From Chiloscyllium plagiosum (Eukaryota), in NCBI RefSeq assembly GCF_004010195.1, contig NC_057752.1:14934203-14966442 (forward strand): a DNA stretch of 32,240 nucleotides, given 5' to 3'. The notes beneath the pieces are model-generated. The model saw only the letters and a list, made by a program, of their open reading frames with translations. It was not told where the DNA came from and ran no database searches. How positions within the stretch are numbered: the first letter of the stretch is position 1; the number at the start of each line of letters is the position of its first letter. Shown piece by piece: positions 2,313 to 30,978 of the stretch. Made by a program: the position numbers and the translations under genes.

Positions 2313-2543
2313 GTTGTGGTTCTGTTCGCCGAGCTGGGAATTTGTGTTGCAGACGTTTCATCCCCTGTCTAGGTGACATCTTCAGTGCTTGGGAGCCCCC
2401 TGTGAAGTGCTTCTGTGATGTTTCCTCCAGTATTTATAGTGGTTTGTCTCTGCCGCTTCCGGTTGTCAGAACAAATTCCCAGCTCGGCGAACAGAAGCAG
2501 AACAACGAGCACCCGAGCTACAAATCTCCTCTCAAACTTTGAA
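2313..2543. mobile_element. Penelope/Poseidon-type PLE non-autonomous foldback (two inverted pLTR pieces) with 13-bp TSD
   Basis: Inverted repeat ttctgttcgccgagctgggaatttgt / acaaattcccagctcggcgaacagaa; TSD attgataagtatt at 2300-2312 and 2543-2555. The same terminal sequence abuts the GIY-YIG ORF at 15952-16293. Confidence 0.85.
2348..2388 (-). ncRNA. Minimal hammerhead ribozyme motif (PLE family A)
   Basis: Minus strand GCA-CTGAAGA-T-GTCACCT(AGAC)AGGGGAT-GAAA-CG-TC-TGC: full catalytic core, GUC triplet, 3-bp stem I. Confidence 0.75.
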
Positions 2544-2861
2544 TTGATAAGTATTCCCCTTGGTTGCAAAATCTATAACATAGTCACACTGGATAAGGTG
2601 CTGATCATTTAAGACTGAGATGAGTAGATATTTCTTCTTAATTTTTGGCATTTTCTCCCTCAGAGGGTTGTGGAGACAGGTAATTTTTTTTTATCTCAGG
2701 GTTTCGAGGGATATGGGAAGTAGGTGGGAGTGGAGTTGAAGCCATGATCGTCTTGAATGATGGAGCAGGCTCAATGGACTGAATGGTCTACTCCTGCTCC
2801 TCTTTCTTGCATCTTAAATTTTTAAACTGTGCCCCAGTCCTAGAATCACTCAACATCTACA

Positions 2862-3182
2862 GGCAGCACAGTGACTCAGTGGTTAGCACTGCTGCCTCAC
2901 AGCACCAGGGACTCGGGTTTGATTCCCATCTCTGTCTGTGTGGAGTTTGCATATTCTCCTCGTGTCTGTGTGGGATTCCTCCGGGTGCTCCAGTTTCCTC
3001 CCACAATCCAAAGATGTGCAGGTCAGGTAATTGGCAATTCTAAATTGCCCATAGTGTTAGGTGCATTAATCAGGGATAAATATAGGGTAGGGAATGGGTC
3101 TGGGTGGGTTACTCTTTGGAAGGTCGGTATGGACTTGTTGGACCAAATGGCCTGTTTCCATACTGTAGGGTATCTAATCTAA
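2862..3182 (+). mobile_element. HE1-type V-SINE
   Basis: tRNA head (tgactcagtggttagcac...ggtttgattcc), V-domain, tail ending atctaatctaa. Confidence 0.85.
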
Positions 3183-3499
3183 CAGTCAGATAATGTTTCT
3201 TTTGTGACTTGAGCATGAACTAAATTCACAAATGTATGTTAAAACACAATCAGGTTATACAATCAAATGTAATTGCTGCGTCAGTTGTTTGAGCAATGAG
3301 GTAAGGAAAGGGTGTCCAGAGTTTAATTTTTGTGGGCTACGCAGATGTGCATCAGGGAGTGTCAGGTGTTGCATGTAAAGCTTAATTTGTTCTGAATAAT
3401 TCGCACATACTGCAAGTTGACATATTGATACTTGGGATTTGTCTGCTAATTAGGCTGCACTTTTCAAATCTTCAGATTCCACAATTCCATGAATATTTC

Positions 3500-3939
3500 A
3501 GGATTACAGGATGTGAATTGCATGGACCAGAAGGGCTGAATATGTTTGAGTTTTAAGGGAGGAAGGCTAAGGGAGGACCTGTTTGAGGTCTATAAAATTT
3601 TGAGGGGCATGGACAGGGTGAATAGAAAACAGATGTTCCCCTTACATTGACGGATCAATAGCAAGGAGCATACATTTAAGGTGAAGGGCAGGAGGTTTAG
3701 AGGAGATTTGAGGAAAGTATTTTCACCCAAATGGTAGTGAGAATCTGGAATGCACTCTCTGCAAGAGTAGTGAAAGGTATGAAACCTCACAACCTTGCAA
3801 GAAGTATAAAGGCGAGCATTTGAAATGTAATAACATTCAATGCTGTAAGCCAAGTGCTGGAAAGTGGGATTAGTGTTGTTAGGTTGGTGCAGACTTGATG
3901 GGATGAAGGACCTCTTCTGTGCTTTATAAATCTATGACT
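3500..3939 (+). mobile_element. Old CR1/HER1 3' end fragment
   Basis: RRLREDLFEVYKILRGMDRV and FKVKGRRFRGDLRK motifs followed by a 3' UTR. Confidence 0.75.
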
Positions 3940-4548
3940 TTGAGGCTATAATTTTGGGTCAAATTGAATGGAAGTGTTGATGTCTTGTGTTGCTGGTTTC
4001 TCCAGTCATGATTCTTGAATTGCTTAAAGTTCAATAGCAATGACTACCAATGGATCTGTGATATTTGTTTACTTCCCATTTACCTATCTCCTCAGAAACA
4101 TGATCAGCGGTTATTCAGCAAAACATTAGTATGTTTTACTTTGTGGCATGACGCCATGTAGTTCTGCTTATTTTAATGTATAAACAACCTGTCTGTATTC
4201 ACATGTACTGACCTTTAGGATGATGAGTGTGGACTTAAGAGCAACAATATGAGTCATCAGTGAAGTTTCTGTTGAACAGCCAGTGAGCACAATGGAATTC
4301 AAAAATCCAGTTTCATGGTCAAAAGCTGTCCATTCTTTCAGTTGTGAAACCTCCACAAACAAATAAGGATATTGCAATCATCTCTGAGGTCGGGGAAGGA
4401 GAAGCGTAAGGAACACTTAATGACACTTACCAATTAAGTGTCTTGTGTTACAAGTTGTAATAACCAGGTATTCTTTTTGTGGTTGAAAGACTGATATTGA
4501 CTCCCTGCTCCTTTTGCAGTAGTTTTTGCATCCACCTGATACTTGGTT

Positions 4549-6450
4549 TTAGAACATAGAACAGTACAGCACAGAACAGGCCCTTCAGCCCACGATGTTG
4601 TGCCGACCACTGATCCTCATGTATGCACCCTCAAATTTCTGTGACCATATGCATGTCCAGCAGTCTCTTAAATGTCCCCAATGACCCTACCTCCACAACT
4701 GCTGCTGGCAACGCATTCCATGCTCTCACAACTCTCTGTGTAAAGAAAGAACCAGCCTCTGACCCTCTATACTTTCCTCCAAAAAGCTTAAAACTATGAC
4801 CCCTCGTGTCATTTCTGCCCTGGGAAATAGTCTCTGGCTATCGACTCTATCTATGCCTCTCATTACCTTGTATACCTCAATTAGGTCCCCTCTCCTCCTC
4901 CTTTTCTCCAATGAAAAAAGGCAACCTCTCCTCATAAGATAAGCCCTCCAGTCCAGGCAGCATCGTGGTAAACCCCCTCTGAACCCTCTCCAAAGCATCC
5001 ACATCTTCCCTATAATAGGGCAACCAGAACTGGACTCAGTATTCCAAGTGCGGTCTAANNNNNNNNNNNNNNNNNNNNNNNNNNNNNNNNNNNNNNNNNN
5101 NNNNNNNNNNNNNNNNNNNNNNNNNNNNNNNNNNNNNNNNNNNNNNNNNNNNNNNNNNNNNNNNNNNNNNNNNNNNNNNNNNNNNNNNNNNNNNNNNNNN
5201 NNNNNNNNNNNNNNNNACCCATCCTTCAATCTCCTCATCCAAGTCATTAATAAAAATTACAAACAATCGAGGCCCAAGGACAGAGCCCTGTGGAACACCA
5301 CTCACCACAGACTTCCAGGCAGAATATTTTCCTTCTACTACCACTCGCTGTCTTCTGTTGGCCAGCCAATTCTGTATCCAGACAGGTAAGTTCCCCTGTA
5401 TCCCATTCCTCCTGACCTTCTGAATGAGCCTACCATGGGGAACCTTATCAAATACCTCGCTGAAGTCCATATACAAAACATCCACAGCTCGACCCTCATC
5501 AACCTTTCTAGTCACGTCCTCAAAGAACTCGATAAGGTTTGTGAGGCATGACCTGCCCCTCACAAAGCTGTGTTGACTGCATTTACTCAAGCCATGCTCT
5601 TCCAGATAGTCATAAATCCTATCCCTCAGAATCCTTTCTAACACCTTGCAGATGACAGACGTGAGACTTACTGGTCTGTAATTGCCGGGGATTTCCCCAT
5701 TTCCTTTCTTGAAGAGAGGAATTACATTTGCCTCCCTCCAGTCCTCAGGTACGACTCCGGTGGAGAGCGAGGATTCAAAGATCTTCGCAAGTGGCGAAGC
5801 AATTGCATTTCTCGTTTCCCAAAGCAGCCGAGGACAAATCTGGTCTGGGCCTGGTGACTTGTCAATCTTAATGTTTGACAAAAAATTTTCAGCATATCAG
5901 CTTCCTCTATCTCTATCCATTCCAGCATGCACACCTGCTCTTCAAAGGTTTCATTCACTACAAAGTTCATTTCTTTCGTAAAGACAGAAGCAAAAACCTC
6001 ATTTAGGGCTTCCCCTACCTCCTCCGACTCCACACACAAATTCCCTTTGCTATCCCTGATCAGCCCTACTCTTTCTTTGACCATTCTCTTGTTCCTCACA
6101 TGAGTGTAAAATGCCTTTGTGTTCTCCCTAATCCGTTTTGCCAAGCCTTTCTCATGCACCCTCCTGGCTCTCCTCAGACCATTTTTGAGCTCCTTCCTCA
6201 CCTGCCTGTAATCCTCTAGAGCTGAGCTTGACCCTAGCTTCCTCCACCTTATGTCAGCTACCTTCTTCCTTTTGACAAGAAGCTCCACCGCTCTCGTCAT
6301 CCAAGGTTCCTTTATCTTACCACTTCTTGCCTGTCTCAGAGGGACATGCAACAACAGCTCCTTAAACAGTCTCCACATGTCTATAGTGCCTTTACCATGG
6401 AACAATTGCTCCCAATCCATGCTTCCTAACTCATGTCTAATCGCATCACA
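4549..6450 (-). mobile_element. HER1-type CR1 LINE ORF2 (RT domain) and 3' tail, frameshifted, spans an N-gap
   Basis: ORFs 5722-6420, 5036-5881 and 4726-5247: [46 protein letters not shown]; tail (gttctat)n at about 4549-4565. Confidence 0.92.
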
Positions 6451-6579
6451 ATATCTGCTGGCTTAGCCAGGGATGCATACTTCGCATGAACAAATTTAAA
6501 AAAAATGTAAGTAACATGCATGTCCATGTTTTACCAAAGAATGGGAATCATCTGATTCAGTATCTGAAGGGCTAACAGA

Positions 6580-7187
6580 CTCCAGAGAAGAAATGTCTCC
6601 TTAGCTCCATTGTAAATGGAAGACACCTTATTTTGAAACTTCCCACCAAATTCTCAATTTTCTCACAGGCCTCTACACTGGCAAGCTCTCGGAATCTTAC
6701 ATGTCACAATAAGATCACCTCTCATTCCTGTAAAGTATAGTATGTGAATAAAGGCCCAATTTGTGCAGCAAATGCTGAGATTGCTGGAAAGGTTCAGCAG
6801 ATCTGGCAGCATCTGTGGAGAGAAATCAGAGTTAGGGTTTTGGGTCAAGTGACCCTTCCTCAGAACCTGAAACATTAACTCTAATTTATCTCCACAGATA
6901 CTGCTAGATGTTTTCAGCAACTTCTGTTTTTGTTTCTGATTTACAGCATCTGCAGTTCTTTTGGTTTTTATTTCCAATTTGTGCAACCTTTACTGAAAAT
7001 ATAACATCATCATAAATTGCCTATTAGTTCTTTTGTTCTCAAGTAAGGGGACCAAAAATATTTAGAGTACTTTTGTCTGATCAGTGACTTTGCTTTTGCA
7101 GAAAATTTCCCTGTTGGTGTACTCTACCTCCTCACAATAAAGGCCAACATTTCATTTGCCTTCCTAATTATTTGGTGTATCTGCATA
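6580..7187 (-). mobile_element. Older CR1 3'-half fragment (host of the PLE mini-element 6768-6973)
   Basis: QIHQIIRKANEMLAFIVRR and MRGDLIVTCKI on the minus strand. Confidence 0.6.
6768..6973. mobile_element. PLE-derived foldback mini-element (family C) with 12-bp TSD and a degenerate hammerhead
   Basis: TSD ccaatttgtgca at 6756-6767 and 6974-6985; inverted arms gcagcatctgtggagagaaatcagagtta / taactctaatttatctccacagatactgc; minus-strand CTGAGGA-A-GGGTC(ACTT)GACCC-AAAAC at 6836-6863. Confidence 0.75.
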
Positions 7188-7920
7188 GCCAACATCCTGA
7201 AATCACTTTTTATATCCTCGATCCTTTTCCTGGCTATATCATTAGTGCCAATATGTAACAAGATTTCTGGCTGTTCGTCCTCCCCTTTTAGAACCTTATA
7301 CACCCAATCGGAGACATCCTGGACCCTGGCACCAGGGAGGCAACATACCTTCCGGGAATCCCGATCCTGACCACAAAATCTCCTGTCGATTCCCCTAACT
7401 ATCGAGTCCCCTACCACGAGTACTTTTCTATTCTGCCCGCTTCCCTTCTTTGCCACAGTGTCAGGCTCAGTGCCAGAGAACTGACTGCTATGGCTTTCCT
7501 CTGGTAGGTCATCCCCCCAGCAGTATCCAAAATGGTATACTTATTGATGAGGGTAATGTCCACAGGGGAACTCTGCACTGTCTGACTGTCCCCTTTCCTC
7601 CCCCTAACTATAACCCATCTATCCTTGTCCTGAGCCTTAGGAGTGACCAACTCCCGGTAACTCCTCTCAATTACCCCCTCAGCCTCCCGAATGATCCGTA
7701 GTTCATCCAGCTCTAGCTCCAATTCCCTAACACGGTTTTCAAGGAGCCGGAGTTGGGTGCACTTCCCGCAGATGTAGCCAGCGGAGACATGTGCCATGTC
7801 TCCCACCTGCCACATTCTGCAGGAGGAGCAAGCAACTGCCCTGCATCCATATCCGACTTATCTGAACACCCACTCAGTACTAAAGTAGAAAGCTTAGTTC
7901 AAGTTGCTATAAAATTAATA

Positions 7921-8090
7921 ACAGGAGAAAGTGAGGACTGCAGATGCTGGAGATCAGAGCTGAGAATGTGTTGCTGGAAAAGCGCAGCAGGTCAGGCAGC
8001 ATTCCTGAAGAAGGGCTTATGCCCGAAACGCCGATTCTCCTGTTCCTTGGATGCTGCCTGACCTGCGCTTTTCCAGCAACACATTCTCAG
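7921..8090. mobile_element. 170-bp Neptune-type PLE foldback mini-element (family B) with 12-bp TSD
   Basis: TSD ataaaattaata at 7909-7920 and 8091-8102; ~40-bp inverted repeat 7959-8002 / 8051-8090; same terminal sequence as the RT-bearing PLEs at 19770-22131 and 23884-24975. Confidence 0.88.
8002..8035 (+). ncRNA. Hammerhead ribozyme motif (family B), cleavage triplet mutated to GCC
   Basis: CTGAAGA-A-GGGC(TTAT)GCCC-GAAA-CG-CC-GA; sister copies have GTC or GTT. Confidence 0.65.
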
Positions 8091-9129
8091 ATAAAATTAA
8101 TAGCAAACTTATATTCAATAGAGTAAGTTTAGAATGAACCTTACCTTATTAACCAGGTTAGAGGAGGAGGGCGGGTGGGAGACACTACAGTTGTACAGTC
8201 TCTGGTTTAGCCGCCTTTCTGATATATGTGGTCACTGCTTTCCTTCCCGGCTGCCTCTCTGGTCCTTGTCACTTCCTCCGCTGTTTTATCATCTCAATTT
8301 AATGCATGCACATATCCCCAGTGCTGCACTGATGTGTTAGCTGAAATTGGACACTTGGGGCCCTGGGGTGCAGTTCAAAACCCAGGAGGGTTTCCCAGTT
8401 TGGCCTGAGTACCACATTTCATTTCTAGTGTGGTAGTGGCAAAAACATCATGCAACCCTTCACTTATTAAATCAGAGTCGAAATTTTCAAGTTTTGAATT
8501 TCATTGAATCATGGGTTAATCTTCTGAATGCTGTGATCAAATGCACTTGAAGGATCAGGATGACCCTACTGGGGGCAGATACCATTTCACTGATAGAGTT
8601 GTGATCTCTATTATCATAGAGTTTCTGTATGCAGAACCACCAACAATAAATTTAACCTTTCAATTGGATTCTTTACTTTAAATTTAGCACAAAAATGTTC
8701 CAACCTGGAACCTTTTTAACTTGAATTATAGAGGTGTAAAATTAACAGAACAGCTTCCCAGACCAGCTGTTTCCCTGCACAAGTGGCTCTCATTACACGT
8801 AGAACTGCGTCAAACCTGGTACATGGTTCTCTTATAATATGTTGTGTAGTTTCATTTAGTTGCAGTGTTATGGAGGCATTAAAACAAATAATTCTAAAAT
8901 TATAAGCTTCAATGTGTGGAAACTGTGCAACTTATCAGTAATTATATACAGCCAAGTGTTAGCCCATTGGCCTCACCAGAAAAACGATTTCAGTGGGGTC
9001 TGTTTCCCATAGTGATGAGAAAGATTCCTGTTATGGGATGAAGCAACTAGTTGTTTGCAGACTGTTACTTTGAAAGAGTTAATTATTTCCTTTGTATTAA
9101 ATCATACTTTCATCTGGGCCAGCCAGTCT

Positions 9130-10034: not shown

Positions 10035-10190
10035 AAAAAAACCCAAAAGTACTGTGGATGCTGGAAATTTGAAACAAAAAGAGAAATTGCTGGAAAATCT
10101 CAGCAGGCCTGGCAGCATTAGTGAAGAGAAATAGGGTCCAGTGACCTTTCTTCAGAACTGATTGTAGCTAGGAAAAGAATATTTTCAAAA
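10035..10190 (-). mobile_element. PLE family C terminal repeat; the element apparently resumes at about 11449-11555 after a HER1 insertion
   Basis: Reverse complement of the 6890-6973 arm (gatgctggaaatttgaaacaaaaagagaaattgctggaaaatctcagcagg); truncated hammerhead CTGAAGA-A-AGGTC(ACTG)GACCC on the minus strand at 10134-10155. Confidence 0.6.
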
Positions 10191-11448
10191 ATATTCCGAG
10201 GATTATGTGGGAAGCAAGAGAGGAAATTGCAGTACCGTTGGCAACGATCTTTTCGTCTTCACTGTCAACGGGGGTGGTACCAGGGGACTGGAGAGTGGCG
10301 AATGTTGTGCCCCTGTTCAAAAAAGGGAATAGGGATAACCCCGGGAATTACAGGCCAGTTAGTCTTACTTCGGTGGTAGGTAAAGTAATGGAAAGGGTAC
10401 TGAGGGATAGGATTTATGAGTATCTGGAAAGACACTGCTTGATTAGGGACAGCCAGCACGGATTTGTGAAGGGTAGGTCTTGCCTTACAAGTCTGATTGA
10501 ATTCTTTGAGGAGGTGACCAAGCATGTGGATGAGGGAAGAGCAGTGGATGTAGTGTACATGGATTTTAGTAAGGCATTTGATAAGGTTCCCCATGGTAGG
10601 CTTATGCGGAAAGTCAGGAGGCATGGGATAGAGGGAAATTTGGCCAATTGGATAGAAAACTGGCTAACCAGTCGAAGGCAGAGAGTGGTGGTAGATGGTA
10701 AATATTCAGCCTGGAGCCCAGTTACAAGTCGAGTTCCGCAGGGATCAGTTCTGGGTCCTCTGCTGTTTGTAAATTTTATTAATGACTTGGATGAGGGAGT
10801 CGAAGAGTGGGTCAGTAAATTTGCAGATGATACGAAGATAGGTGGAGTTGTGGACAGTGAGGAGGGCTGTTGTCGGCTACAGAGGGACTTAGATATGATG
10901 CAGAGCTGGGCTGAGGAGTGGCAGATAGAGTTCAACCCTGCCAAATTTGAGGTTGTCCATTTTGGAAAGACGCCTCACTTTAGGAAAGATGTGGGAGCTT
11001 TGGAGAGGTTGCAGAGAAGATTTACCAGGATGTTGCCTGGAATGGAGAATAGGTCGTATGAGGATAGGTTGAGAGTGCTAGGCCTTTTCTCATTGGAATG
11101 GCGAAGGATGAGGGGTGACTTGATAGAGGTTTATAAGATGATCAGAGGAATAGGTAGAGTAGACAGTCAGAAACTTTTTCCCCGGGCACAACCGAGTGTT
11201 ACAAGGGGACATAAATTTACGGTGAAGGGTGGAAGGTATAGGGGAGATGTCAGGGGTGGGTTCTTTACCCAGAGAGTGGTGGGGGCATGGAATGCGCTGC
11301 CTGTGGGAGTGGCAGAGTCAGAATCATTGGCGACCTTTAAGCGGCAATTGGATAGGTACATGGATAGGCGCTTAAGCTAGGACAAATGTTCGGCACAACA
11401 TCGTGGGCCGAAGGGCCTGTTCTGTACTGTATTGTTTTATGTTCTATG
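10191..11448 (+). mobile_element. 5'-truncated young HER1/CR1 LINE: open 391-aa RT ORF (10205-11380) with an internal in-frame deletion, plus 3' tail
   Basis: [46 protein letters not shown]; tail gggccgaagggcctgttctg...ttttatgttctatg. Confidence 0.93.
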
Positions 11449-11724: not shown

Positions 11725-11791
11725 TAAAACACCAAAAGAGCAGTGGATGCTGGAAATCTGGAACAAAAACAGAAATTGCTGGAAAATCTCC
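11725..11791 (-). repeat. PLE family C terminal fragment
   Basis: gtggatgctggaaatctggaacaaaaacagaaattgctggaaaatctc, matching 10050-10101. Confidence 0.6.
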
Positions 11792-12349
11792 TGGCTAAGA
11801 AGTTGCCAGTTGAGTCTGTGGTTCATAGTTATGTTCCCAGTACAAAACTCAAGGGTTGCCACTGTAAAAGCCAACCTAAGAAAGTCAGTAAAGCTGAATA
11901 ACTGCTTAAAAAGAACAAAATCCTTCAAGTTAATTGGCTAAACAATTGCTAACTCAAAGCTAATCTTACTTACAAGCTTGTGATCAGGGCCATGCTTTAT
12001 ATTAAGTGAACAAGCAAAATGCTGTTTTAATTTCATGCAATTGGAGGATTTTTAGTGATTTGTGGAATGTGGTTCCAGTTTGAATTACCTTGCTATGAGA
12101 ATTCTCTCAGCATTGGCTATGATGTGAGAACAAATGGTCACTTTGAGAATGTAAGTGTGCCATGACTGGTTACAACTTCAGATGAATAAATCTACTACTT
12201 GTTGGGGAAAGATATACAAACAAAATACTTTATTATCTAGTCACTGATCTAGAAAGCAACGAAGAGTTATGAGTACCGAAAACATGCAGTTTCACTTCGA
12301 GGAACACAATACCATCACCCCCACCCTTTCATTCAGGAATCATTATTTT

Positions 12350-12439
12350 TAACAAAAACAGAAATTGTTAGATAAACACAGCAGGTCTAGCAACATCTAT
12401 GGTGAGAAAGAAGAGGTATCATTTTGAGTCCAATGACTC
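12350..12439 (-). repeat. Diverged PLE family C-like terminal fragment
   Basis: aacaaaaacagaaattgttagataaacacagcaggtctagcaacatctatgg...gagtccaatgactc (remnant of the stem II hairpin). Confidence 0.5.
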
Positions 12440-12588
12440 GACAGTTGTTTTGTTTGTTTTTTTTAATGAGTTAAGGGTATCAATGGATGTGGATCAAAGG
12501 GGGAGAAGTGGAGTTGAGGCAGGGATGGAAATCATGGACTCCAGTGGTATTCTCAGCACCTGACTCATGCACAGTGGGCCCCAGAGTC

Positions 12589-14122
12589 AAAACCCTACGC
12601 AGAGTCAACCCACGTAAGGCTGCTAGACCAGATAACATCCCTGACAGAGTGCTCAAAGGATGCTCTTACGTACTGGTGGATGTTCTCCTAGACATCTTCA
12701 ACATCTCCCTGAGCTGCACCATAGTTCTAACGTGCTTCAAGGCCGCTACCGTTGTCCCCGTGCCGAAGAAGTCTTCAGTGTCCTGTCTCAACGACTACCG
12801 CCCCATTGCGCTAACACCCATCATCATGAAGTGTTTTGAGAGGCTTGTGATGAGGCATATTAAGACCCTGCAGTTCACATCTCGTCCAAACCGCTCAACA
12901 GATGATGCCATTTCCAACACCCTCAAGCTGGCCCTCACCCACCTGGAGAAGAAGGACCCCCATGTCAGACTACTGTTCATAGACTTCAGTTCTGCATTTA
13001 ACACTGTCATTCCTCAGCACCTGGTTGGAAAGCTGAGTCTGCTGGGCCCAAATACCACCCTTTGTAACTGGATCCTGGACTTCCTGACTGGGAGACCTGT
13101 TAGTCTGGATTGGGATCAGCATCTCCAACACCATCACACTGAGCACGGGGGCCCCCAGGGCTGTGTGCTCAGTACACTGCTGTTCACCCTGCTGAGACAC
13201 AACTGTGCAGCAATGCACAGGTTGAATCACATCATCAAGTTCGCTGATAATATGACTGTAGTGGGTCTCATCAGCACGACCAATGAGTCAGCATATAGAG
13301 AGGAGCTGCAACTGCTAACAGACTGGTGCAGAGCCATCTGAATGTGGACAAGATGAAAGAGATGGTTGTTGACTTCAGGAGCGACCATTCTCCACTGGGC
13401 ATTGGCTTTCCTGTGGAGATGGTGAACAGCACGAAATCTTTTGGCGTCCACCTGGCAGAGAATCTCACCTGGACCGTCAACACCAGCTCCATAGCCAAGA
13501 AATCCCAGCAATATCTGTACTTTCTGCACAGGCTGAGGAACGCCCACATTCCCCCCCCCCACCACTTCCCAACCTCTCTGCATCTTACAGAGGGTTTATT
13601 GAGAGTGCCCTGAGCTGCTGCATCACTGCCTGGTTCAGGAATTGCCCTACAACGGATAGTAAGGGCAGCTGAGAGGATCAATGGGGTCTCTCTTCCCACC
13701 ATTACAGGCATTTACTCCACACATTTCATCCGAAAGGCTAACAGCATTGTAGAAGACCCCACACATCCCTCACTGAAAGTCTTCTCCCTCCTGCTGTCTG
13801 GCAGAAGATACTGGAGCATTCGATCTCTCACGGCCAGACTGTGCAACAGTTTCTTCCCCCAAGCCATCGGGCTGCTTAATACTGTATGATCAGACTCTTT
13901 TTCCATCTGGAACTCTTTGCACGACTTTGAATTGCTGCTAGAAAAATGTCTATTGTTTATCGTTTTTCTACTGTACTGTAACTTGCGTGTTTTGCACTTC
14001 TTATGCAGTGTACGGTTGTGTAGTTAATGCCGTCCATGTAGCACCCTCGGTCCTGGAGGAAGGCTGTCTCATTTTTAATCTATCAGTTGTATACGGTAAA
14101 AATGACAAATAAAAAAGCTACT
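12589..14122 (+). mobile_element. Rex1/Babar non-LTR retrotransposon, 5'-truncated RT and 3' UTR
   Basis: [70 protein letters not shown]; 3' end gacaaataaaaaagctact; candidate TSD cagagtc at 12582-12588 and 14123-14129. Confidence 0.9.
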
Positions 14123-14356
14123 CAGAGTCTCAGTCCCTGATAATTGATGCATGCCCTATCCTGTGCCCTGGTTTGAGGCACAAATTAGCCATGGTGTCAT
14201 TGAACAGTAGAGTGTATTTGGGCTGGATGGTCTCTTTCTGTCCCTATTACTCTAATGGTAATCAACACAACGCAGTGTTGCTAATAGGAATGATTTGCAG
14301 AGACTTTCTATTCATGTTATGCTAGTCCTTTTAAAGAGGACTATCCAAAGCATTTG

Positions 14357-14672
14357 GGGCGGCACGGTGGCTTAGTGGTTAGCACTGCAGCCTCACAGCA
14401 CCAGGGTCCCAGGTTCGATTCCAGCCTCGGATGACTGACTGTGTGGAGTTTGCACATTCTCACTGTGTCTGCATGGGTTTCCTCCGGGTGCTCCGCTTTC
14501 CTCCCACAGTCCAAAGGCATGCAGATCAGGTGAATTGGCCATGCTAAATTGTCCATCGTGTTAGGTGCATTAGTCAGAGGGAAATGGGATTGGGTGTGTT
14601 ACTCTTCGCAGGGTCGGAGTGGACTGATTGGGCTGAAGGGCCTGTTTCCACACTGTACGGAGTCTAAAAAAA
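14357..14672 (+). mobile_element. HE1-type V-SINE, full length
   Basis: A box TGGCTTAGTGG, B box GGTTCGATTCC, V-domain, HER1-like tail and A-run. Confidence 0.88.
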
Positions 14673-15605: not shown

Positions 15606-15951
15606 GTCATAGAACATAGCAGGACAGCACAAAACAGGCCCTTCAGCCCTTGATGTTGTGCTGACCTTTTATCCTACTCTGAGGTCAAGCTAACCTACAT
15701 ACCCTACATACCGTTCATTTCACCTATCATCCAAGTGCCTAGCCAAGAGTTGCTTCAATGTCCTGAATGTATCTTACTCTACTATCACCGGTGGCAGTGT
15801 ATTCCATGCACCTGCCACTCTCTGTGTAAAGAGCTAACCTCTGACATCTCCCCTAAACCTTCCTCCAATCACATTAAAATCATGCCCGCCCCTGCTATGA
15901 TAGCCATTTCCACCCTGGGGGAAAAAAGTCTCTGGCTCTCCACTCTATCTA
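15606..15951 (-). mobile_element. HER1/CR1 3' end
   Basis: catagaacatag tail and IDRVESQRLFSPRVEM on the minus strand; similar to 4549-4860. Confidence 0.8.
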
Positions 15952-16293
15952 TGCTGTGGTTCTGTTCGCCGAGCTGGAAGTTTTTGTTGCAAACGTTTCG
16001 TCCCCTGTCTAGNCTTCCGGTTGTCAGTTTCAGCTGTCTGCTGTAGTGGCCGGTATATTGGGTCCAGGTCGATGTGTTTGTTGATGGAGTTTGTGGATGA
16101 GTGCCATGCATCTAGGAATTCCCTGGCTGTTCTCTGTTTGGCTTGCCCTGTAATGGTAGTGTTGTCCCAGTCAAATTCATGTTGCTTGTCGTCTGCGTGT
16201 GTGGCTACTAGGGATAGTTGATGTTCGTGGATGCGGATCGTTAGCTGTCTTATGTAGTGTATTGTGCAGTCCTTGCATGGGATTTTGTACACT
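15952..16293 (-). mobile_element. Penelope/Poseidon-type PLE: GIY-YIG endonuclease C-terminus and 3' pLTR (family A)
   Basis: YKIPCKDCTIHYIRQ..RIHEHQ..SLVATHADDKQHEFDWDNT...AREFLDAWH, followed by the ...AGGGGAC-GAAA-CG-TT-TGC hammerhead half (rest lost at the N at 16013). Confidence 0.85.
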
Positions 16294-17019
16294 NNNNNNN
16301 NNNNNNNNNNNNNNNNNNNNNNNNNNNNNNNNNNNNNNNNNNNNNNNNNNNNNNNNNNNNNNNNNNNNNNNNNNNNNNNNNNNNNNNNNNNNNNNNNNNN
16401 NNNNNNNNNNNNNNNNNNNNNNNNNNNNNNNNNNNNNNNNNNNNNNNNNNNNNNNNNNNNNNNNNNNNNNNNNNNNNNNNNNNNNNNNNNNNNNNNNNNN
16501 NNNNNNNNNNNNNNNNNNNNNNNNNNNNNNNNNNNNNNNNNNNNNNNNNNNNNNNNNNNNNNNNNNNNNNNNNNNNNNNNNNNNNNNNNNNNNNNNNNNN
16601 NNNNNNNNNNNNNNNNNNNNNNNNNNNNNNNNNNNNNNNNNNNNNNNNNNNNNNNNNNNNNNNNNNNNNNNNNNNNNNNNNNNNNNNNNNNNNNNNNNNN
16701 NNNNNNNNNNNNNNNNNNNNNNNNNNNNNNNNNNNNNNNNNNNNNNNNNNNNNNNNNNNNNNNNNNNNNNNNNNNNNNNNNNNNNNNNNNNNNCCAGGCC
16801 GACCAAACACTCCATCCATGCTAATCCCGTTTCCCTGCACTTGGCCCAAACCTTTCCTATCCATGGAAATGTCCAAATGCATTTTTTAAATGTCGTTAAT
16901 GTACTCTTCTCAACCACTTGTATTGGCAGCTCATTCCGTATGCGGACCACCCTTTGCATAAAAGAAAAGTTGCCTCTCGGGTTCCCTTTTATTCTTTCCC
17001 CTCTAACCTTAAACTGATT

Positions 17020-17556
17020 ACAGAATCATACAATCCCTACAGTGTGGAAATAGGCCATTAGGCCCAACAAGTCCACACCGACCCTCAGAGTATCCCACCT
17101 CGGCCCATTTCATACCACTCTACATTTACCCATGACTAATGCACCTGACCTACACTTCCCTGCATATTGTGGGCAATTTAGCATGGCCAATTCACCTAAC
17201 CTGCACATCTTTGGATTGTGGGAGGAAACCAGAGTGCCAGAGACCCGGGTTCAATTCCCGCCTCAGGCGACTGACTGTGTGGAGTTTGCAAGATGTGCAG
17301 GTCAGGTGAATTGGCCATGCTAAATTGCCCATAGTGTTAGGTAAAAGGGGTATGGGTGGGTTGCGCTTCGGCGGGTCGGTGTAGACTTGTTGGGCCGAAG
17401 GGCCTGTTTCCACACTGCATGTAATCTAATCTAATCACACAGACACAGGGAGAATGTGCAAACTCCACACAGACAGTCACCTGAGGCTGGAATTGAACCC
17501 AGATCCCTTGTGCTGTGACGTAGCAGTGCTAACTGCTGAGCCACCATGCCACCCCG
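17020..17556 (-). mobile_element. HE1-type SINE (outer copy)
   Basis: Tail at 17020-17100, V-domain, and tRNA head ggggtggcatggtggctcagcagttagcac ending near 17556. Confidence 0.8.
17236..17435 (+). mobile_element. HE1-type SINE (inner, opposite orientation, 5'-truncated, internally deleted)
   Basis: gacccgggttcaattcccgcctcaggcg...gggccgaagggcctgtttccacactg-taatctaatctaatc, lying inside the outer copy. Confidence 0.8.
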
Positions 17557-19550: not shown

Positions 19551-19828
19551 TTCAGTTTGAGCAAGGTAATTTGTAAGAAGTGAGGAATTGCCATAATCTA
19601 AGGTTTACTACTTATGCCATGTCGATTCAGTTATTCATAGCATCATAGAATCCCGATAGTGTGGATGCACACTATTTGGCCCATCAGTTACATACCACCC
19701 TCTGAACAGCATCTCAGACACACCCACCCTATCCCTGTAATCCTGAATTTCTCATGGCTAATCCACTGAGCCAAGAGTGTGCTGCTGGAAAAGCACAGCC
19801 GGTCAGGCAGCATCTGAGGAGCAGGAGA

Positions 19829-19862
19829 ATCAACGTTTCGAGCATAAGCCCTTCATCAGGAA
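19829..19862 (-). ncRNA. Minimal hammerhead ribozyme motif (family B), GUU triplet
   Basis: TTC-CTGATGA-A-GGGC(TTAT)GCTC-GAAA-CG-TT-GA. Confidence 0.75.
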
Positions 19863-22004
19863 TGAGGCTTGTGGGCCAAGGGGGGGGGGGGGGGAGAAGG
19901 GAGCTGAACGTAGGGGTGAAGGTGATAGGTCGGAGAGGAGGGTGGAGTGACTAGATGGGAAGAAAGATGGTCAGGTAGAACAGATCAAGAGGGTGGTGCC
20001 GAGTTGGAAGGCTGGATCTGGGATCAGGTGGGGGGAGGGGAAATGAGGAAACTGGGTGAAATCCACATTGACCCTGCGTGGTTGAAGTGTCCCAAGACGG
20101 AAGATGAGGCGTTCTTCCTCCAGGTGTCGGGTGGTTAGTGATTGTCGATGGAGGAGGCCCAGGACCTGCAGGTCCTAGGGGGAGTGAGAGACTGTGTTAA
20201 AGTGTTCACCTACAGGACGGTGGGGTTGTTCCATGTGTGTGTCCTGGAGATGTTCTCTGAAACATTCCGCAAGTAGGTATCCTTTCTCCCCAGTGGAGAG
20301 GAGACCGCATTGGGAGCAACAGATACAATAAATGGCATGTGTGGAAGTACAGGTAAATCTCTGGACGTGGAAGGAGCCTTTGGGGCTTTGCTTGGAGGTG
20401 AGGGGCATTTTGCAATTCTTGCGGTGGCGGGGGGGGGGAGGTGGTTGGGGAGGGCAGGTGTGGGTCTGACAAGGGAGTCCTGGAGGGATTGGTCTTTACG
20501 GAACACAGATAAGGGTGGGGACGGAAATATATCCCTGGTGGTGGGGTCTGTTTGTAGATGGCAGAAATGGCGGAGGATCATGCAATGTATCTGGAGTTTG
20601 GTGAGGTGGAAGGTGAGGACCAAGGGGGTTCTGTCCTTGTTGCGGTTGGAGGGATGCGGTTCAAGGGCGGAGGTGCGGGAAGTAGAGGAGATGTAGTTAA
20701 AGATGCCCTCCAGCACGTGGGAGGGAAAATTATGGTCTTTGTAGAAGGAGGCCATCTTGTATGTTCTGAGATAGAATTGGTCCTTCTGGGAGCAGATGCG
20801 GCAGAGATGGTGGAATTTGGAATAAGGGATAGCATTTTTACAGGAGACAGGATGGGAGGAGGTGTAATCCAGGAAGCTGTGGGAGCTGGTGGCTTTGTAG
20901 TGGATATCCATGCTGAGTCGATCACTGTTAATGGAGATGGGGAGGTCCAGGAAGGGGAGAGAGGTGCCCGCGATGGTCCAGGTGAATTTGAGGTCAGGGT
21001 GGAAGGTAACGGTGAAGTTGATGAACTGTTCAATCTCCCCGTGGAAACACAAGGTTGCGCCAATATAGTCCTTGATGTAGCAGAGGAAAAGGTGGGGAAT
21101 GCTGCCGGTGTAACTGTGGACCTTTATGGAATGCAGATTGGGGTGTGGAGGGAAATTTATCCCTGGTGGTCAGATCTGTTTGTAGGTGGTCGAAATGTCT
21201 GAGGACGATGCAATGTAGATCGGGGTGGGGAGGGAAATACCCAGTGTCACCCACATCATTCCCCACCTTTCCTCTGTTACATCGATGGCTGTATTGCCGC
21301 ACCTCGTGCTCCCACGAGGAGATTCAACAGTTCATCAACTTCACCCCAACCTTAAGTTCCTGGACCATCATGCACACCTCCCTGTCTTTCCTGGACCTCT
21401 CCATCTTCATTAACGTTGACGGACTCAACACGGACATCCACTACAAACCCACCGACTCCCACAGCTACCTGGACTAAACTTGCTCGCAACCTGCCTCCTG
21501 TAAAAACGCTATCCCTTATTCCCAATTCCTCTGTTGCATCTGCTCCCAGGAGGACCAATTCCACCATAGAACACACCAGATGGGCGCCTTCTTCAAAGAC
21601 TGCAATTTCCCCTCCCATGTGGTCGATGATGCATCTCATCCACTTCCCACACATCTGCAACCGCAACAAGGACAAAACCCCCTGGTCCTCACCTTCCACC
21701 CCATTGCCTAACCCTTACCACCCGATGTCTGGAGGAAGAACGTCTCATTTTCTGCCTTGGGACCCTCCAACCACATGGAATCAACGTAGTTTTTGCCAGT
21801 TTCCTCATTTCCCCTACCCCCATTTTATCCAAGATCCAACCTTCCAACTCGGCATTGTTCTCTTGATCTGTCCTATCTGTCAATCTTCCATCTCACCTAT
21901 CCGCCCCACCTTTCTCTCCGACCTATCACCTTCTCCCCCACCTTCATTTACCTATCGTATTCTTCCCCTACCCCCCCCCTTATCTCTCAGCCTCACAAGC
22001 CTCA

Positions 22005-22038
22005 CTCCTGATGAAGAGCTTATGCTCGAAACGTCGAT
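22005..22038 (+). ncRNA. Minimal hammerhead ribozyme motif (family B), intact GUC triplet, sense to SPRYD3
   Basis: CTC-CTGATGA-A-GAGC(TTAT)GCTC-GAAA-CG-TC-GA. Confidence 0.8.
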
Positions 22039-22781
22039 TCTCCTGCCCTTCAGATGCTGCCTGACTGCTTGTGCTTTTCCAGCAGCACTCTCTCGACTCT
22101 GATCTCCAGCATCTGCAATCCTCACTTGCTCCTAATCCACTGAACCTGCACATCCCTGGACACTATGGGCAATTTAGCATGGTCAATCCACCTAACTTGC
22201 ACATCTTTGAACTGTGGGTGGAATCCGGAGCACCCATAGGAAATCCATACAGACACTGAAAAGTGCAAACTCCACACAGATATTGACCTGAGGATGGAAT
22301 CGAACCCGGGTTCCTGGCACTGTGAGGTCGCAGTGCTAACCACTGAGCTAACTGTTAACCTCATGAAATCTCCTCCAGAAGATTCCTGTGGATCTCATCC
22401 CAGGGCAGTGATAGGGGCAATACAGTTCGGCTGAGTTCCTCCAAACTAAGTAGTACATTCAACCTGGGTTCCTACTCACCTAACACTGTGCAAGAACCAA
22501 CCACTGGAAAGTGTGAATGCAGAGCAAGGGCAAGATCATGTCGATTATAATCTAGACTCACCTGTGAAAAATGGCCACTTCACTCAAAAAGAGGAGAACC
22601 TGTGGAACTGTAATCCAGAAGAGAAAGGGTTCTTGAAAGGGACATTATGAAAGCTTCCTATTTGAGGCTCTGCATTTTATCAAAGTTGCAAATAAATGGA
22701 ACCGGAACAATTGTGTTTAAATTTGCTGATTTTGTATCCTCAGTCAATTTTCCACTTTCTTCTTTCTTGGTTTGTCTCCAG

Positions 22782-23883: not shown

Positions 23884-24975
23884 GAGGAGAAAGTGAGGAC
23901 TGCAGATGCTGGAGATCAGAGCTGAAAATGTGTTGCTGGAAAAGCGCAGNNNNNNNNNNNNNNNNNNNNNNNNNNNNNNNNNNNNNNNNNNNNNNNNNNN
24001 NNNNNNNNNNNNNNNNNNNNNNNNNNNNNNNNNNNNNNNNNNNNNNNNNNNNNNNNNNNNNNNNNNNNNNNNNNNNNNNNNNNNNNNNNNNNNNNNNNNN
24101 NNNNNNNNNNNNNNNNNNNNNNNNNNNNNNNNNNNNNNNNNNNNNNNNNNNNNNNNNNNNNNNNNNNNNNNNNNNNNNNNNNNNNNNNNNNNNNNNNNNN
24201 NNNNNNNNNNNNNNNNNNNNNNNNNNNNNNNNNNNNNNNNNNNNNNNNNNNNNNNNNNNNNNNNNNNNNNNNNNNNNNNNNNNNNNNNNNNNNNNNNNNN
24301 NNNNNNNNNNNNNNNNNNNNNNNNNNNNNNNNNNNNNNNNNNNNNNNNNNNNNNNNNNNNNNNNNNNNNNNNNNNNNNNNNNNNNNNNNNNNNNNNNNNN
24401 NNNNNNNNNNNNNNNNNNNNNNNNCGAGGGAGTCACGGAGGGAGTGGTCTTTTCGGAACGCTGATAGGGGAGGGGAGGGAAATATATCCTTGGTGGTGGG
24501 GTCCGTTTGGAGGTGGCGGAAATGACGGCGGATGATACGATGTACATGGAGATTGCTGAAAATGTGTTGCTGGAACAGCGCTGCAGGTCAGGCAGCATCC
24601 AGGGAACAGGAGAATCGACGTTTCGGGCATAAGCCCTTCTTCAGGTTGGTGGGGTGGTAGGTGAGGACCAGTGGGGTTGTGTCCTGGTAGCGATTGAAGG
24701 GGTGGGGCTCAAGGGCAGAGGAGCGGGAAGTGGAGGAGATGCGGTGGAGGGCATCGTCGATCACGTCTGGGGGGAAATTGCGGTCTTTGAAGAAGGAGGC
24801 CATCTGGGTTGTATGGTATTGGAACTGGTCCTCCTGGGAGCAGATGCGGCGGAGACGAAGGAATTGGGAATATGGGATGGCGTTTTTCCAGAGGGCAGGG
24901 TGGGAGGAGGTGTAGTCCAGGTAGCTGTGGGAGTCGGTCGGTTTATAGTAAATGTCCGTGTTGATTCGGTCGCCC
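23884..24975 (-). mobile_element. Neptune-type PLE (RT C-terminus to pLTR), spans an N-gap
   Basis: TDIYYKPTDSHSYLDYTSSHPALWKNAIPYSQFLRLRRICS..PLVLTYHP; the terminus at 23884-23949 matches 7924-7990. Confidence 0.88.
24613..24644 (-). ncRNA. Minimal hammerhead ribozyme motif (family B), GUC triplet
   Basis: CTGAAGA-A-GGGC(TTAT)GCCC-GAAA-CG-TC-GATT. Confidence 0.75.
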
Positions 24976-25309
24976 GAGTTTTGTGGTTTGGTTTCTACAG
25001 GAACAGAGATGCACTTCATGTGGGCGCCAAGGGTATAGGAAAGACCACGTATCCTGGAAATTGAGTGAAGGAGGAGGAACCAGGACCTCACAGATGCTGA
25101 TATCGCACTTTCAATGTTTTGAAAAAGGGATTTAAAAGTTAAAAAAAAATAGTACTAAGACACACACAAAAATATAATAGACCAAGTGACCAAAGACTTG
25201 GTCAGAGAGGTAGTTTTATAGAGTGTCTTAAAGAAGGAAAGCGAAGTGAAGAGATGTCGGGAGAAAATCATGAGGCCTGGAAGCTGAAAGTATGGCCACC
25301 AATTGGAAA

Positions 25310-26095: not shown

Positions 26096-26329
26096 GAATT
26101 GGGAATACACAAGAGGACAGAATTACAGGAGCACAAATACCTGACTATTGTGCAGCTGGAAGAAACTATGGAGAAGCTGGGGAGTAAGGCCATAGAGGGA
26201 TTTGAAAACCAGGATGAAAACTTTGAAATCAAAACACTGTTTGATCTAGAGCGTTTGTGTTATTTTTGTGAGACAATGGGTCAGAAGATCCAGACCACTA
26301 AAGTATGGTTTACAGAGCTGGGGTGAGGA

Positions 26330-28140: not shown

Positions 28141-28316
28141 ACATTGAGAGATCATATGAAAACAACATACAGTCATAGAGATATGCAACATGGAAACAGA
28201 CTCTTGGTCCATGCTGACCTGATATCTGAAAAAAACCAAGTCTCATTTGCCAGCGTTTAGCCCATATCCCTCTAAACCCTTCCTATTCATATACCCATCC
28301 AAATGTCTTTTAAATG

Positions 28317-28594
28317 CTGTGGTTCTGTTCACCGAGCTGGAAGTTTTTGTTGCAAACGTTTCATCCCCTGTCTAGGTGACATCCTCAGTGCTTGGGAGCC
28401 TCCNNNNNNNNNNNNNNNNNNNNNNNNNNNNNNNNNNNNNNNNNNNNNNNNNNNNNNNNNNNNNNNNNNNNNNNNNNNNNNNNNNNNNNNNNNNNNNNNC
28501 AGGGGACGAAACGTTTGCAACAAAAACTTCCAGCTCGGCGAACAGAACCACAGCAACGAGCACCCGAGTTACAAATCTTCTCACAAACTTTGAA
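28317..28594. mobile_element. PLE family A foldback (inverted pLTRs around an N-gap) with 13-15 bp TSD
   Basis: aatgtcttttaaatg at 28302-28316 and 28593-28607; arms 28315-28370 and 28500-28555 are reverse complements. Confidence 0.87.
28352..28391 (-). ncRNA. Minimal hammerhead ribozyme motif (family A), GUU triplet
   Basis: GCA-CTGAGGA-T-GTCACCT(AGAC)AGGGGAT-GAAA-CG-TT-TGC. Confidence 0.75.
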
Positions 28595-29636
28595 TGTCTT
28601 TTAAATGTTGTAATTGTACCAGCCTCCACCAGTTCCTCTGGCAGTTCATTCCATACATGCACCCTCTGCATAAACAAGTTGCCCCTCAAGTCCCTTTTAA
28701 ATCTTTCCCTTCTCACCTTAAATCTATACCCTCTACATTTGGGCTCCCCCACCCCAGGGAAAAGACCATGTCTATTTATCCTATCCTTGCCCCTCATGAT
28801 TTAATAAACCTCCTATATGGTCACCCCCTCAGCCTCCAGGGAAAATAAGCTCCAGTCTATTCAGCCTCTCCTTGTAGCTCTATGCCTTCAATCCTGGCAA
28901 CTTCCTTGAAAATCTTTTCTGAACCCTTTCATGTTTGACAATATCCTTCCTATAAGCAGGAAGACCATAATTGCACACAGTATTCCAAAAATGGCCTTAC
29001 CAATATCCTATATAGCTGCAACATGACCTCGCAACTCCTATATTCAATGCTCTGACAAATAAAGGAGAGCATACCAAACACTTTCTTCACTATCCTGTCT
29101 ACCTAAGACTCCACTTTCAAGGAACTATGAACCTGCATTCCAAGGTTTCTTTATTCAGCAACACTCCCCAGGATGTTACCCTTAAGTAAATATGTCCTGC
29201 CCTGATTTGCCTTTCCAAAATGCAGTATCCACATTTATTTAAATTAAACTTCATCTGACACCCATTGGCGCATCTGGTTACTTTGAGATAATGTTATTTA
29301 CTGTCCATATGCCACAAAATTTTGTGTCATTTGCAAACTTACTAACCATATCTCCTATGGTCGCATTCAAATCATTTATGTAAATGACAAAAAAGCAGTG
29401 GATCCAGCACCGATCCTTGCGACATACTGTTGATCACAATCCGAAAACCAACCCTTCACCACCATCCTGTCTCCTACCTTCAAGCCCATTTTGTATCCAA
29501 ATGGCTACTTCTCCCTGTACTCTGAGATCTAACGTTGCTAATCAGTCTACAATGGGGAACCTTGTCGAAAGCCTTACTGAAGTCCATATAGATAACATCT
29601 ACCGCTCTGCCTTCATCAATCCTCTTTGTTACTTGT

Positions 29637-29757
29637 TAGGAAGGAAGATGTGTTGGACATTTTGAACAACCATGGATGGGTACTTAATCTAGGTTAGAAG
29701 TTCGGCACAACATCGTGGGCCGAAGGGCCTGTTCTGTGCTGTATTGTTCTATGTTCT
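29637..29757 (+). mobile_element. Very short HER1 3'-tail insertion
   Basis: gttcggcacaacatcgtgggccgaagggcctgttctgtgctgtattgttctatgttct, nearly identical to 11388-11446. Confidence 0.8.
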
Positions 29758-29847
29758 CCAAAAAACTCAGCCATGTTCGTGAGACACGATTTCCCAAGCC
29801 TTTCCAAATACTTGTGAATCCTGTCCCTCAGAATCCACTCCAACAGA

Positions 29848-30027
29848 GGTCCAAAGATGTGCAAATTCAGTGCACTGGCCATGCTTAATGGCCTATAGTG
29901 TTCAGGCATATGTAGGCATGGGAAATGTAGGGTTACAGGGAAAGGGCAGGGGGATGGGTCTGAGTGGGATTCTTTTTGGAGGGTGAATTTGGACTGAATA
30001 GCCTGTTTTCACGCTATGGATTCTATG
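29848..30027 (+). mobile_element. HE1-type SINE 3' half
   Basis: gtccaaagatgtgca...ggccatgct...gcctgttttcacgctatggattctatg. Confidence 0.7.
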
Positions 30028-30877
30028 GAACTTATCCACAACTGATGTCAGACTCACCGGTCTATAATTCCCTGGCTTTTCCTTACCTGCTTTCTTAAAG
30101 AATTGCACCACATTAGTCACTCTCCAGTCTTTGAGCACCTGACCCATAGCTACTGATGATACAGCTATCTCAGCAAGGGCCCCAGCAATCATTTCCCTAC
30201 TTTCCCACAAAGTTCTGGGATGTACCTGATCAGATGTGTTTTAAGATGTCCAGCACCATCACCTCAGTACACTTTTCAAAATTATCACTATTTATTTCTG
30301 CAAGTGCTCTAGATTCTGTATCTTTCTCTACAAAAATACTCATTTATTATCTCACCAACCTTCTTCATTTCCACACATAAGACTGTCTTGTTGATCTTGA
30401 AGGGCCCCATTCTCCCTGTAGTTACTCTTTTTCCCTTAATGTATTTGTAGAATCTCTTTGAATTCCCCTTAACCCTATTTGCCAAAGCCATCTCATGTCC
30501 CCTTTTTGCCCTCCTGATTTCCCTCTTGACTATACTCCTACTGCCCATTTCTCCTTGAGGAATTCACTCGATCCTAGCTGTCTATAACCTGCCACATGCC
30601 TCCTTTTTCTTGACCAGAGTCTCAATTTCTCTAGTCATCCAGAATTCCCAACACCTCCCAGCCTTTTCCTTCACACTAGTGGGAACGTACTGCCTCTGGA
30701 CTCTTATCTCATTTTTGAAGGCCTTCCACTTTCCAGCCATACCTTGATCTGCAAATAGCATCTCCCAATCAACTTTTGAAAATTCTTACCTAATACCATC
30801 AAAATTGGCTTACCTCCAGTTTAGAACTTGAACTTTTTGATCAGGGCTGTCCTTTTCCATAACTACTTTAAAGCTAA

Positions 30878-30978
30878 AAGTCACACAACACCAGGTGATA
30901 GTCCAACAGGTTTATTTGGAAACACTGCCATTTGGAGCACTGCTCCTTCATCAGGTGGTTGTGGAGGTTAAGATCATG
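30878..30978 (-). mobile_element. ~100-bp solo element (family D) with a degenerate hammerhead and 12-bp TSD
   Basis: TSD ctttaaagctaa (30866-30877) / ctttaaaactaa (30979-30990); minus strand CAC-CTGATGA-A-GGAGC(AGT)GCTCC-AAA..GTG, then aataaa. Confidence 0.65.

Follow-up and report, generated by a model that had tools for sequence, protein, structure and literature searches.

What are the hammerhead-like sequences that recur on both strands of a 32,240-nucleotide stretch of the Chiloscyllium plagiosum genome (contig NC_057752.1, positions 14,934,203 to 14,966,442; hereafter the window), and what do their copies tell about the way they spread? An initial annotation, made from the letters alone, proposed four distinct families of Penelope-type repeats, A to D, each bearing a minimal type I hammerhead ribozyme. 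Our analysis indicates that the sites are very probably the 3'-terminal modules of Penelope-like element (PLE) insertions, and that these come from three lineages, namely A, B together with C, and D. The arrangement as such, PLE ends with minimal hammerheads, has been known since 2014. What the present data add is how many copies there are, how cleanly target duplications enclose the inverted pairs, and where the 5' ends fall; the last bears on whether these ribozymes cut the template RNA at all.

Recurrence of the motif was measured with two patterns. The loose one, CTGANGA-N6-30-GAAAC, matches six times in the window against 0.64 expected, and six matches were reached in none of 100 shuffles. 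The strict minimal-hammerhead descriptor demands both core boxes, at most one extra base, a helix II that begins with G and has 4 bp or more, palindromic (Watson-Crick) 15.2/16.2 positions, U16.1 and H17. Five window sites satisfy it, whereas 50 shuffles and the reversed window yield none; a further 296 kb, from other loci of the same genome, contains 100 sites, against none after reversal. Intact minimal hammerheads in the window number five, two of family A and three of family B. Two more family A sites are readable only in their 3' half, next to N; the remaining four, B 8005, C 6835, C 10134 and D 30928, carry mutations. The coordinates of all 11 sites first listed are real, but a full core is present in the window only in families A and B, because the window copies of C and D are mutated. 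For the genomic families C and D the full core holds: GAAAGC is kept in 35 of 40 D copies, and GAAA in 14 of the 30 C copies sampled, most of the others showing CpG-type decay. After helix II the 30 C copies read GAAAC (11), AAAAC (8), AAAAT (5), GAAAT (2) or one of four other endings found once each.

The majority letters, taken from 8-30 sampled copies per family, keep the full core in all four families and share one architecture: CUGANGA, one unpaired base, a helix II that opens with G-C, GAAA, a 4-base palindrome, and H17. In family A the unpaired base, which separates A9 from G10.1, is U; the other three families have A there. Helix II is different each time, with 7 bp including one internal A-G in A (GUCACCU/AGGGGAC), 4 bp in B (GGGC/GCCC), and 5 bp in both C (GGGUC/GACCC) and D (GGAGC/GCUCC). 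Its opening pair G10.1-C11.1 is common to the four majorities; the window copies of A have G-U at this place, which, like the changes in the window copies of C and D, is CpG-type decay of the majority sequences. In helix I the pairs 2.1/1.1 and 2.2/1.2 form in every family, with different bases. Helix III is missing from all four. Its place between A15.1 and U16.1 is taken by the 15.2/16.2 palindrome. Families A, B and C have ACGU and then C or U, whereas D has AGCU and then A; the ACGT stem III palindrome proposed at first therefore applies to three families and fails for D.

These traits match the published definition of the PLE minimal hammerhead, as the sites had been classed from the start. 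The traits that PLE searches yielded, according to the available excerpts of Cervera and de la Pena (2014, PMC4209133), are a base between 9 and 10.1, G10.1-C11.1, palindromic 15.2-16.2 and several consensus families per genome. The likeness to the motifs in those excerpts extends to both core boxes, a helix II of 4-7 bp, perhaps the short helix I, the missing helix III, a place near the ends of PLE open reading frames (ORFs), and the occurrence of most copies alone or as opposite-strand pairs 100-700 bp apart. Some differences stand out against the same excerpts, which do not mention sharks: copy numbers here are at least ten times those of the coelacanth (~4,000) and Xenopus (~9,000), and in families B and C units of ~95-130 nt predominate, with the motif at their very start.

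The copy numbers come from the 3.56-Gb assembly that contains the window, searched with narrow core patterns and counted as exact matches only. Family A has 12,956 matches, B 47,001, C 2,822 and D 28,171, while each reversed pattern has none. For a 19-base word from the B tail the genome-wide count is 209,519, and for its reversed control 0. The former count pools several subfamilies, because a B-like subfamily with a UUUU loop (GGGC-UUUU-GCCC) has the same word. That subfamily, seen at loci L039, L041, L060, L088, L025 and others, has a different upstream 3' untranslated region (3'UTR) and a different tail extension. The very high copy number first suspected from the window is thus borne out, and a shark-like genome joins the hosts of Penelope-type minimal hammerheads with numbers an order of magnitude above those published for the coelacanth and the frog. 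Whale-shark and vertebrate surveys list Penelope elements without mention of ribozymes. We found no description of these motifs in sharks in the literature available to us, the supplements to Cervera and de la Pena (2014), whose genomes may include cartilaginous fish, being outside the available excerpts.

Two comparisons use these sequences to relate the families and to look for covariation in helix II. Tails of B and C align with a local score of 26 against a shuffle maximum of 15, and the other family pairs do not rise above shuffles. B and C are accordingly sister families, which leaves three lineages by tail comparison; the four stem II helices are indeed different, but the four families are not all unrelated. 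In family B the genome counts for pair 10.3/11.3 are 44,357 G-C (by subtraction from 47,001), 830 G-U, 874 A-C and 940 A-U, the last against 68 expected under independence. The A-U excess amounts to a compensatory change in helix II.

The assignment to PLEs is carried by the reading frames that adjoin the motifs. Directly upstream of the family A site at 16000, on the same strand, 16014-16292 encodes the C-terminal part of a GIY-YIG endonuclease. Upstream of the family B site at 19832, the ORF 20213-21169(-) and a second frame of 19860-20560(-) together comprise a reverse transcriptase (RT) thumb, a CxxC linker and a frameshifted GIY-YIG domain. The GIY-YIG remnant of this ORF stops ~180 nt before the hammerhead, and 70%-identical relatives of the ORF in a shark carry RVT_1. 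GIY-YIG remnants were identified by motif reading because Pfam did not score the fragments. For families C and D, which no ORF in the window had linked to PLEs, the proposed relationship is supported elsewhere in the genome. At locus L033 a PLE ORF encoding GIY-YIG and a Cx5CxxC linker is followed, ~190 nt past its stop codon, by a C copy. At locus L052 a PLE ORF remnant is found upstream of a D copy; the remnant retains the linker, has lost the endonuclease part, and shares 35% identity over 241 residues with the ORF linked to B. Overall, the motif sits ~75-190 nt downstream of GIY-YIG ORFs.

Not every copy in the window has such a partner. A and B had been described as lying in terminal repeats joined to GIY-YIG/RT ORFs. 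This is so only for A 16000, B 19832 and B 22008, which adjoin ORF remnants; B 8005, however, belongs to an ORF-less pair and B 24617 to a nested short unit. The latter unit (24549-24645) is inserted in sense orientation within an older copy of a PLE ORF (24425-24548 and 24646-25154), and it is not the terminal repeat of that ORF, because the two ORF halves are contiguous in the copy at 20540-20660. Nor does the window contain a direct pseudo-long terminal repeat (pseudo-LTR) pair, that is, a partial tandem; its repeats are inverted, 5'-truncated copies. The three RT ORFs with Pfam matches in the window (5216-5896-, 10172-11377+ and 12475-13338+) have motifs that look like those of CR1/L2-type long interspersed elements (LINEs), not of PLEs.

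How the copies were inserted can be read from their flanks. All five head-to-head pairs in the window are enclosed by direct repeats of 12-15 nt (Table 1), while random pairs of window positions show a repeat of at least 10 nt in 0.3% of 1,821 trials. Each head-to-head pair is a single insertion with target duplication. In all five, a tail extension of ~35-40 nt is confined to one arm, the other stopping at the short tail end. Elsewhere a solo B unit of 94 nt starts exactly at the C of CUGA inside a 12-nt target duplication, and other copies have target duplications of 16, 14 and 12 nt. A flanking repeat of at least 7 nt was present in 7 of 39 copies, against a control mean of 2.1. These features match the hallmarks of PLE insertion given by Craig et al. 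(2021, PMC8557442), in which copies are heavily truncated at the 5' end, have an inverted truncated copy beside them, and bear a tail of 30-40 bp, often at one end only. The partial tandem of direct pseudo-LTRs that these authors also describe is a difference, since it does not occur in the window.

The same anatomy bears on two other origins for the repeats. Animal type I hammerheads often occur in non-LTR retrozymes. These are hammerhead repeats in tandem, relatives of PLE pseudo-LTRs, whose spread depends on circular RNAs formed by self-cleavage (Cervera and de la Pena, 2020), and they have been reported in one chondrichthyan (Li et al., 2026, a preprint). Retrozymes and the units studied here are alike in being short, non-coding, akin to PLE ends and furnished with type I hammerheads, but retrozymes are tandem. 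In the window there is no tandem array. Among 72 tail-anchored B-type copies, sampled from loci chosen for other families, a same-sense neighbor within 500 nt was found for only seven, against 22 with an antisense tail up to 500 nt upstream, and the units are solo or inverted and flanked by target duplications. We consider a retrozyme origin very unlikely. Still more improbable is that the motifs arose by chance in hairpin-forming repeats such as miniature inverted-repeat transposable elements or microRNA precursors. The window does contain long inverted repeats, and the pair at 7921-8090, with a hairpin of ~42 bp, gives a weak Rfam match to mir-2007 (7975-8076; 31.5 bits against a gathering score of 100). 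The match arises because the head-to-head Penelope pair forms a hairpin, and the hairpins are two inverted PLE-end copies within one target duplication; moreover, shuffled and reversed controls contain no motifs, and the motif keeps a fixed distance downstream of GIY-YIG ORFs. If transcribed, head-to-head pairs could nonetheless yield hairpin RNAs.

The mechanism most compatible with PLE insertion is the one suggested by the work on the Anolis Poseidon element PAc (Frangieh et al., 2024, PMC11167929). The inserted module consists, in order, of a minimal type I hammerhead motif, the 4-base palindrome that replaces helix III, the predicted cleavage site, and a tail of ~65-85 nt with an optional extension of ~35-40 nt. 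By analogy with PAc, the element protein would cut both target strands with a stagger, reverse transcription would be primed from both DNA ends and begin at one of two internal tail sites, and head-to-head joining of the two complementary DNAs (cDNAs) would leave the extension on a single arm. In PAc, too, the hammerhead is upstream of an internal region where reverse transcription starts, two start sites explain the optional tail of 30-40 bp, both DNA strands are cut and extended, and the RNA template is uncut; the insertion anatomy in the window fits this scheme. The whole pairs inside one target duplication of 12-15 bp lend genomic support to both-strand priming, and the extension on a single arm to two alternative tail start sites, both of which had been shown mainly in vitro. 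The two systems are not identical. The ORF of PAc starts inside its hammerhead, whereas here the motif lies ~75-190 nt past the stop codon and no long ORF starts within it.

Whether the motifs act as ribozymes in this scheme is a separate matter. Dimeric cleavage of such minimal motifs is familiar from the literature. By that precedent the ribozyme would need a second copy (through ACGU/AGCU pairing in a dimer) or the element protein in order to cut, and cutting would be unnecessary for making the template, the genomic copies behaving as copies of uncut RNA. Self-cleavage of the window motifs may accordingly be predicted only for a dimer or in the presence of protein.

The 5' ends of the copies speak to this point. 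We took a census of 63 B-type copies anchored on the tail, so that the motif played no part in their choice. Of these, 34 have their first base at -6 to -1 before CUGA (~5 of them an artefact of the reference, being long UUUU-loop copies). Other copies start in the CUGANGA box (seven), in helix II or GAAA (seven) and at +25 (two). Eleven begin past that point, at +33 (one) or between +41 and +46 (ten), and ~7 of these are really family C. Because the 5' ends cluster at the 5' edge of the ribozyme and none lies at the cut site, the templates were mostly uncut RNAs starting at that edge. Motif-selected copies, in which the upstream extent was taken as sequence common to at least two other copies, give a similar picture in two families: the extent is at most 6 nt in 8/8 B copies and at most 8 nt in 24 of 30 C copies. 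Family A copies extend beyond 60 nt in 26 of 30 cases, and those of D are divided, with at most 13 nt in 13 and more than 60 nt in 14 of 30.

Several observations weigh against the hammerhead reading and are best considered together. None of the 63 copies starts at +28, the first base after GUC, where fossils of ribozyme-cut RNA were sought; the fossil record thus shows no ribozyme-cut templates. Helix I is only 3-4 bp long (3 in A, 3 in D, and 4 in C with 3 more past a bulge), and in family B it is reduced to 2 bp, a U-U mismatch and 1 bp; the published range in the excerpts of PMC4209133 is 4-5 bp, with 2 bp in D. virilis. Five window copies, folded as monomers, do not exceed shuffles in stability (z from -1.71 to +0.71), and their minimum-energy structures are not hammerhead-shaped, a null result that fits a motif unable to act alone, yet gives no positive evidence. 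The A-U excess in helix II of family B may trace to the amplification of one subfamily. A scan with the hammerhead families of Rfam 15 (types I-III, HH9 and HH10) gave no match at the gathering score or at E up to 10, and so provides no independent, model-based support. No match is to be expected, since the motifs are without helix III. An Infernal hammerhead scan of the genome, as once proposed, would therefore miss all the sites with the Rfam models, to which the motifs are invisible, and annotation needs a dedicated descriptor. Finally, published minimal hammerheads cut poorly in vitro (PMC4209133, in the excerpts), and ribozyme cutting is dispensable for in vitro insertion of PAc (Frangieh et al., 2024).

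A rival view takes the motif for a recognition module that has hammerhead sequence without a ribozyme role. Such a view accommodates the pile-up of 5' ends just before CUGA and their absence from the cut site, as well as the upstream extent of no more than 8 nt in the motif-bearing copies of B and most of those of C. It also has a parallel in the anole element, whose catalytic mutants insert normally and whose RNA-seq reads never end at the cut site (PMC11167929), and it agrees with the low in vitro activity reported in PMC4209133. However, in three unrelated lineages the majorities preserve every invariant catalytic base and the helices covary, as catalysis would lead one to expect, and the anole motif cuts when its own protein is present (PMC11167929). 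We regard the lack of a ribozyme role as rather unlikely, though it deserves far more weight than either retrozymes or chance hairpins.

If the motif is indeed part of PLE ends, as we favor, why should so many copies begin precisely at its edge? One answer, which we advance tentatively and think more apt to be wrong than right, is that the PLE transcript opens with the hammerhead, its synthesis being started 0-11 nt before CUGA by a promoter within the short 3'UTR/pseudo-LTR. The hundreds of thousands of target-duplicated units of 95-130 nt might then, no less speculatively, be run-off cDNAs, for which one would have to suppose, with similar reserve, that reverse transcription sets out from whichever tail is closest to the 5' end of the RNA. 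Family D (loci L039-L068) offers the clearest sign. Seventeen copies reach 27 nt or more upstream; 16 of them have TATAAA 36-46 nt before CUGA, 14 of the 16 at -38 or -40, and the 13 short D copies begin 1-13 nt before CUGA, ~30 nt past TATAAA, which suggests a transcription start just before the ribozyme. The starts of B and C copies, 0-8 nt before CUGA, are also in favor. On the other side, B and C have no TATA box, and A (loci L069-L098) has TATAAA at -53 in 13 of 30 copies without a matching pile-up of 5' ends. Were the transcript to start there, ribozyme cutting would clip a capped leader of ~30-40 nt and could switch the RNA between messenger and template roles.

Two other sources of the 5' ends were considered. 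The sequence just before the C motif (10156-10176- in the window, and loci L019, L030, L031 and L033) has a pyrimidine tract followed by CAG, resembling a 3' splice acceptor, and recalls the intron of D. virilis Penelope, which ends at helix I; splicing does not explain free 5' ends. An RNA polymerase III origin of the short units, with A and B boxes, was dropped because nothing convincing was seen by eye.

The copies and fragments in the window, with the direct repeats around the pairs, are collected in Table 1.

Table 1. Copies of hammerhead-bearing PLE ends in the window, their fragments, and the direct repeats enclosing the head-to-head pairs (positions are those of the window)
Feature	Position	Strand	Content
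Direct repeat, 13 nt	2300-2312 / 2543-2555		Around family A pair 2313-2542
Family A head-to-head pair, one insertion	2313-2542	both arms	(-) arm: intact hammerhead 2352-2385(-), short tail, PLE 3'UTR; (+) arm: tail only, with extension
Direct repeat, 12 nt	6756-6767 / 6974-6985		Around family C pair 6768-6973
Family C head-to-head pair	6768-6973	both arms	(-) arm: decayed hammerhead 6835-6863, AAAA replacing GAAA (G12 to A), palindrome broken; (+) arm: 3' half of motif and long tail
Direct repeat, 12 nt	7909-7920 / 8091-8102		Around family B pair 7921-8090; 9 nt by script within the search window, 12 by reading
Family B short head-to-head pair, ORF-less, long hairpin	7921-8090	both arms	(-) arm: tail only, with extension; (+) arm: begins 2 nt before CUGA, motif 8005-8032(+) with ACGC instead of ACGU, U16.1 lost
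Family C solo copy	10036-10176	-	~20 nt of PLE 3'UTR; hammerhead remnant 10134-10155(-), GAAA and cleavage site gone by deletion; long tail
Family C tail-only fragment	11748-11790	-	Absent from the initial list
Decayed C-type copy	12341-12437	-	Truncated within hammerhead; helix II remnant and AAAAUGA; absent from the initial list
Family A PLE 3' end	15945-16292	-	GIY-YIG ORF remnant 16014-16292; hammerhead 3' half 15992-16012; short tail; single N at 16013 replaces hammerhead 5' half and ~95 nt; N run 16294-16793 hides the remainder of the ORF
Direct repeat, 12 nt	19758-19769 / 22132-22143		Around family B pair 19770-22131
Family B long head-to-head pair of 5'-truncated PLE copies	19770-22131	both arms	(-) arm: RT-thumb, linker and frameshifted GIY-YIG remnants (~19990-21169), intact hammerhead 19832-19859(-), short tail; (+) arm: ORF remnants 21356-21990, intact hammerhead 22008-22035(+), long tail
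Family B tail-only fragment with extension	23906-23949	-	Abuts N run 23950-24424; absent from the initial list
Family B short unit, ~97 nt	24549-24645	-	Intact hammerhead 24617-24644(-) and short tail
Direct repeat, 15 nt	28302-28316 / 28593-28607		Around family A pair 28317-28592
Family A head-to-head pair	28317-28592	both arms	(-) arm: intact hammerhead 28355-28388(-), short tail; (+) arm: from 28500, motif 3' half 28500-28515, long tail; middle 28404-28499 is N
Family D solo copy	30866-30990	-	~28 nt of upstream PLE sequence; decayed hammerhead 30928-30954(-), AAAU replacing GAAA (G12 to A, A15.1 to U)

The remaining repeats of the window are of other kinds. The three ORFs with Pfam RT matches we take, from their sequence hallmarks, to be CR1/L2-type LINEs. 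Two of them, 5216-5896(-) and 10172-11377(+), are 74% complementary copies of one family; an ALKBH8_N-type match (13299-13610+) follows the third, 12475-13338(+), and a LINE apurinic/apyrimidinic endonuclease fragment (30977-31267-) lies beside the family D copy. None of these LINE fragments is part of the hammerhead elements. N runs at 5059-5216, 16013, 16294-16793, 23950-24424 and 28404-28499 fall in LINE or Penelope copies and hide parts of three elements. There is also a repeat resembling a short interspersed element, tRNA-derived and with a GGCAGCACAGTG...GGTTAGCACTG head, of which several copies occur in both orientations (2862-2926, 14358-14422); repeats related to these copies are found at 1218-1525, 1696-1907, 17028-17554 and 22132-22361.

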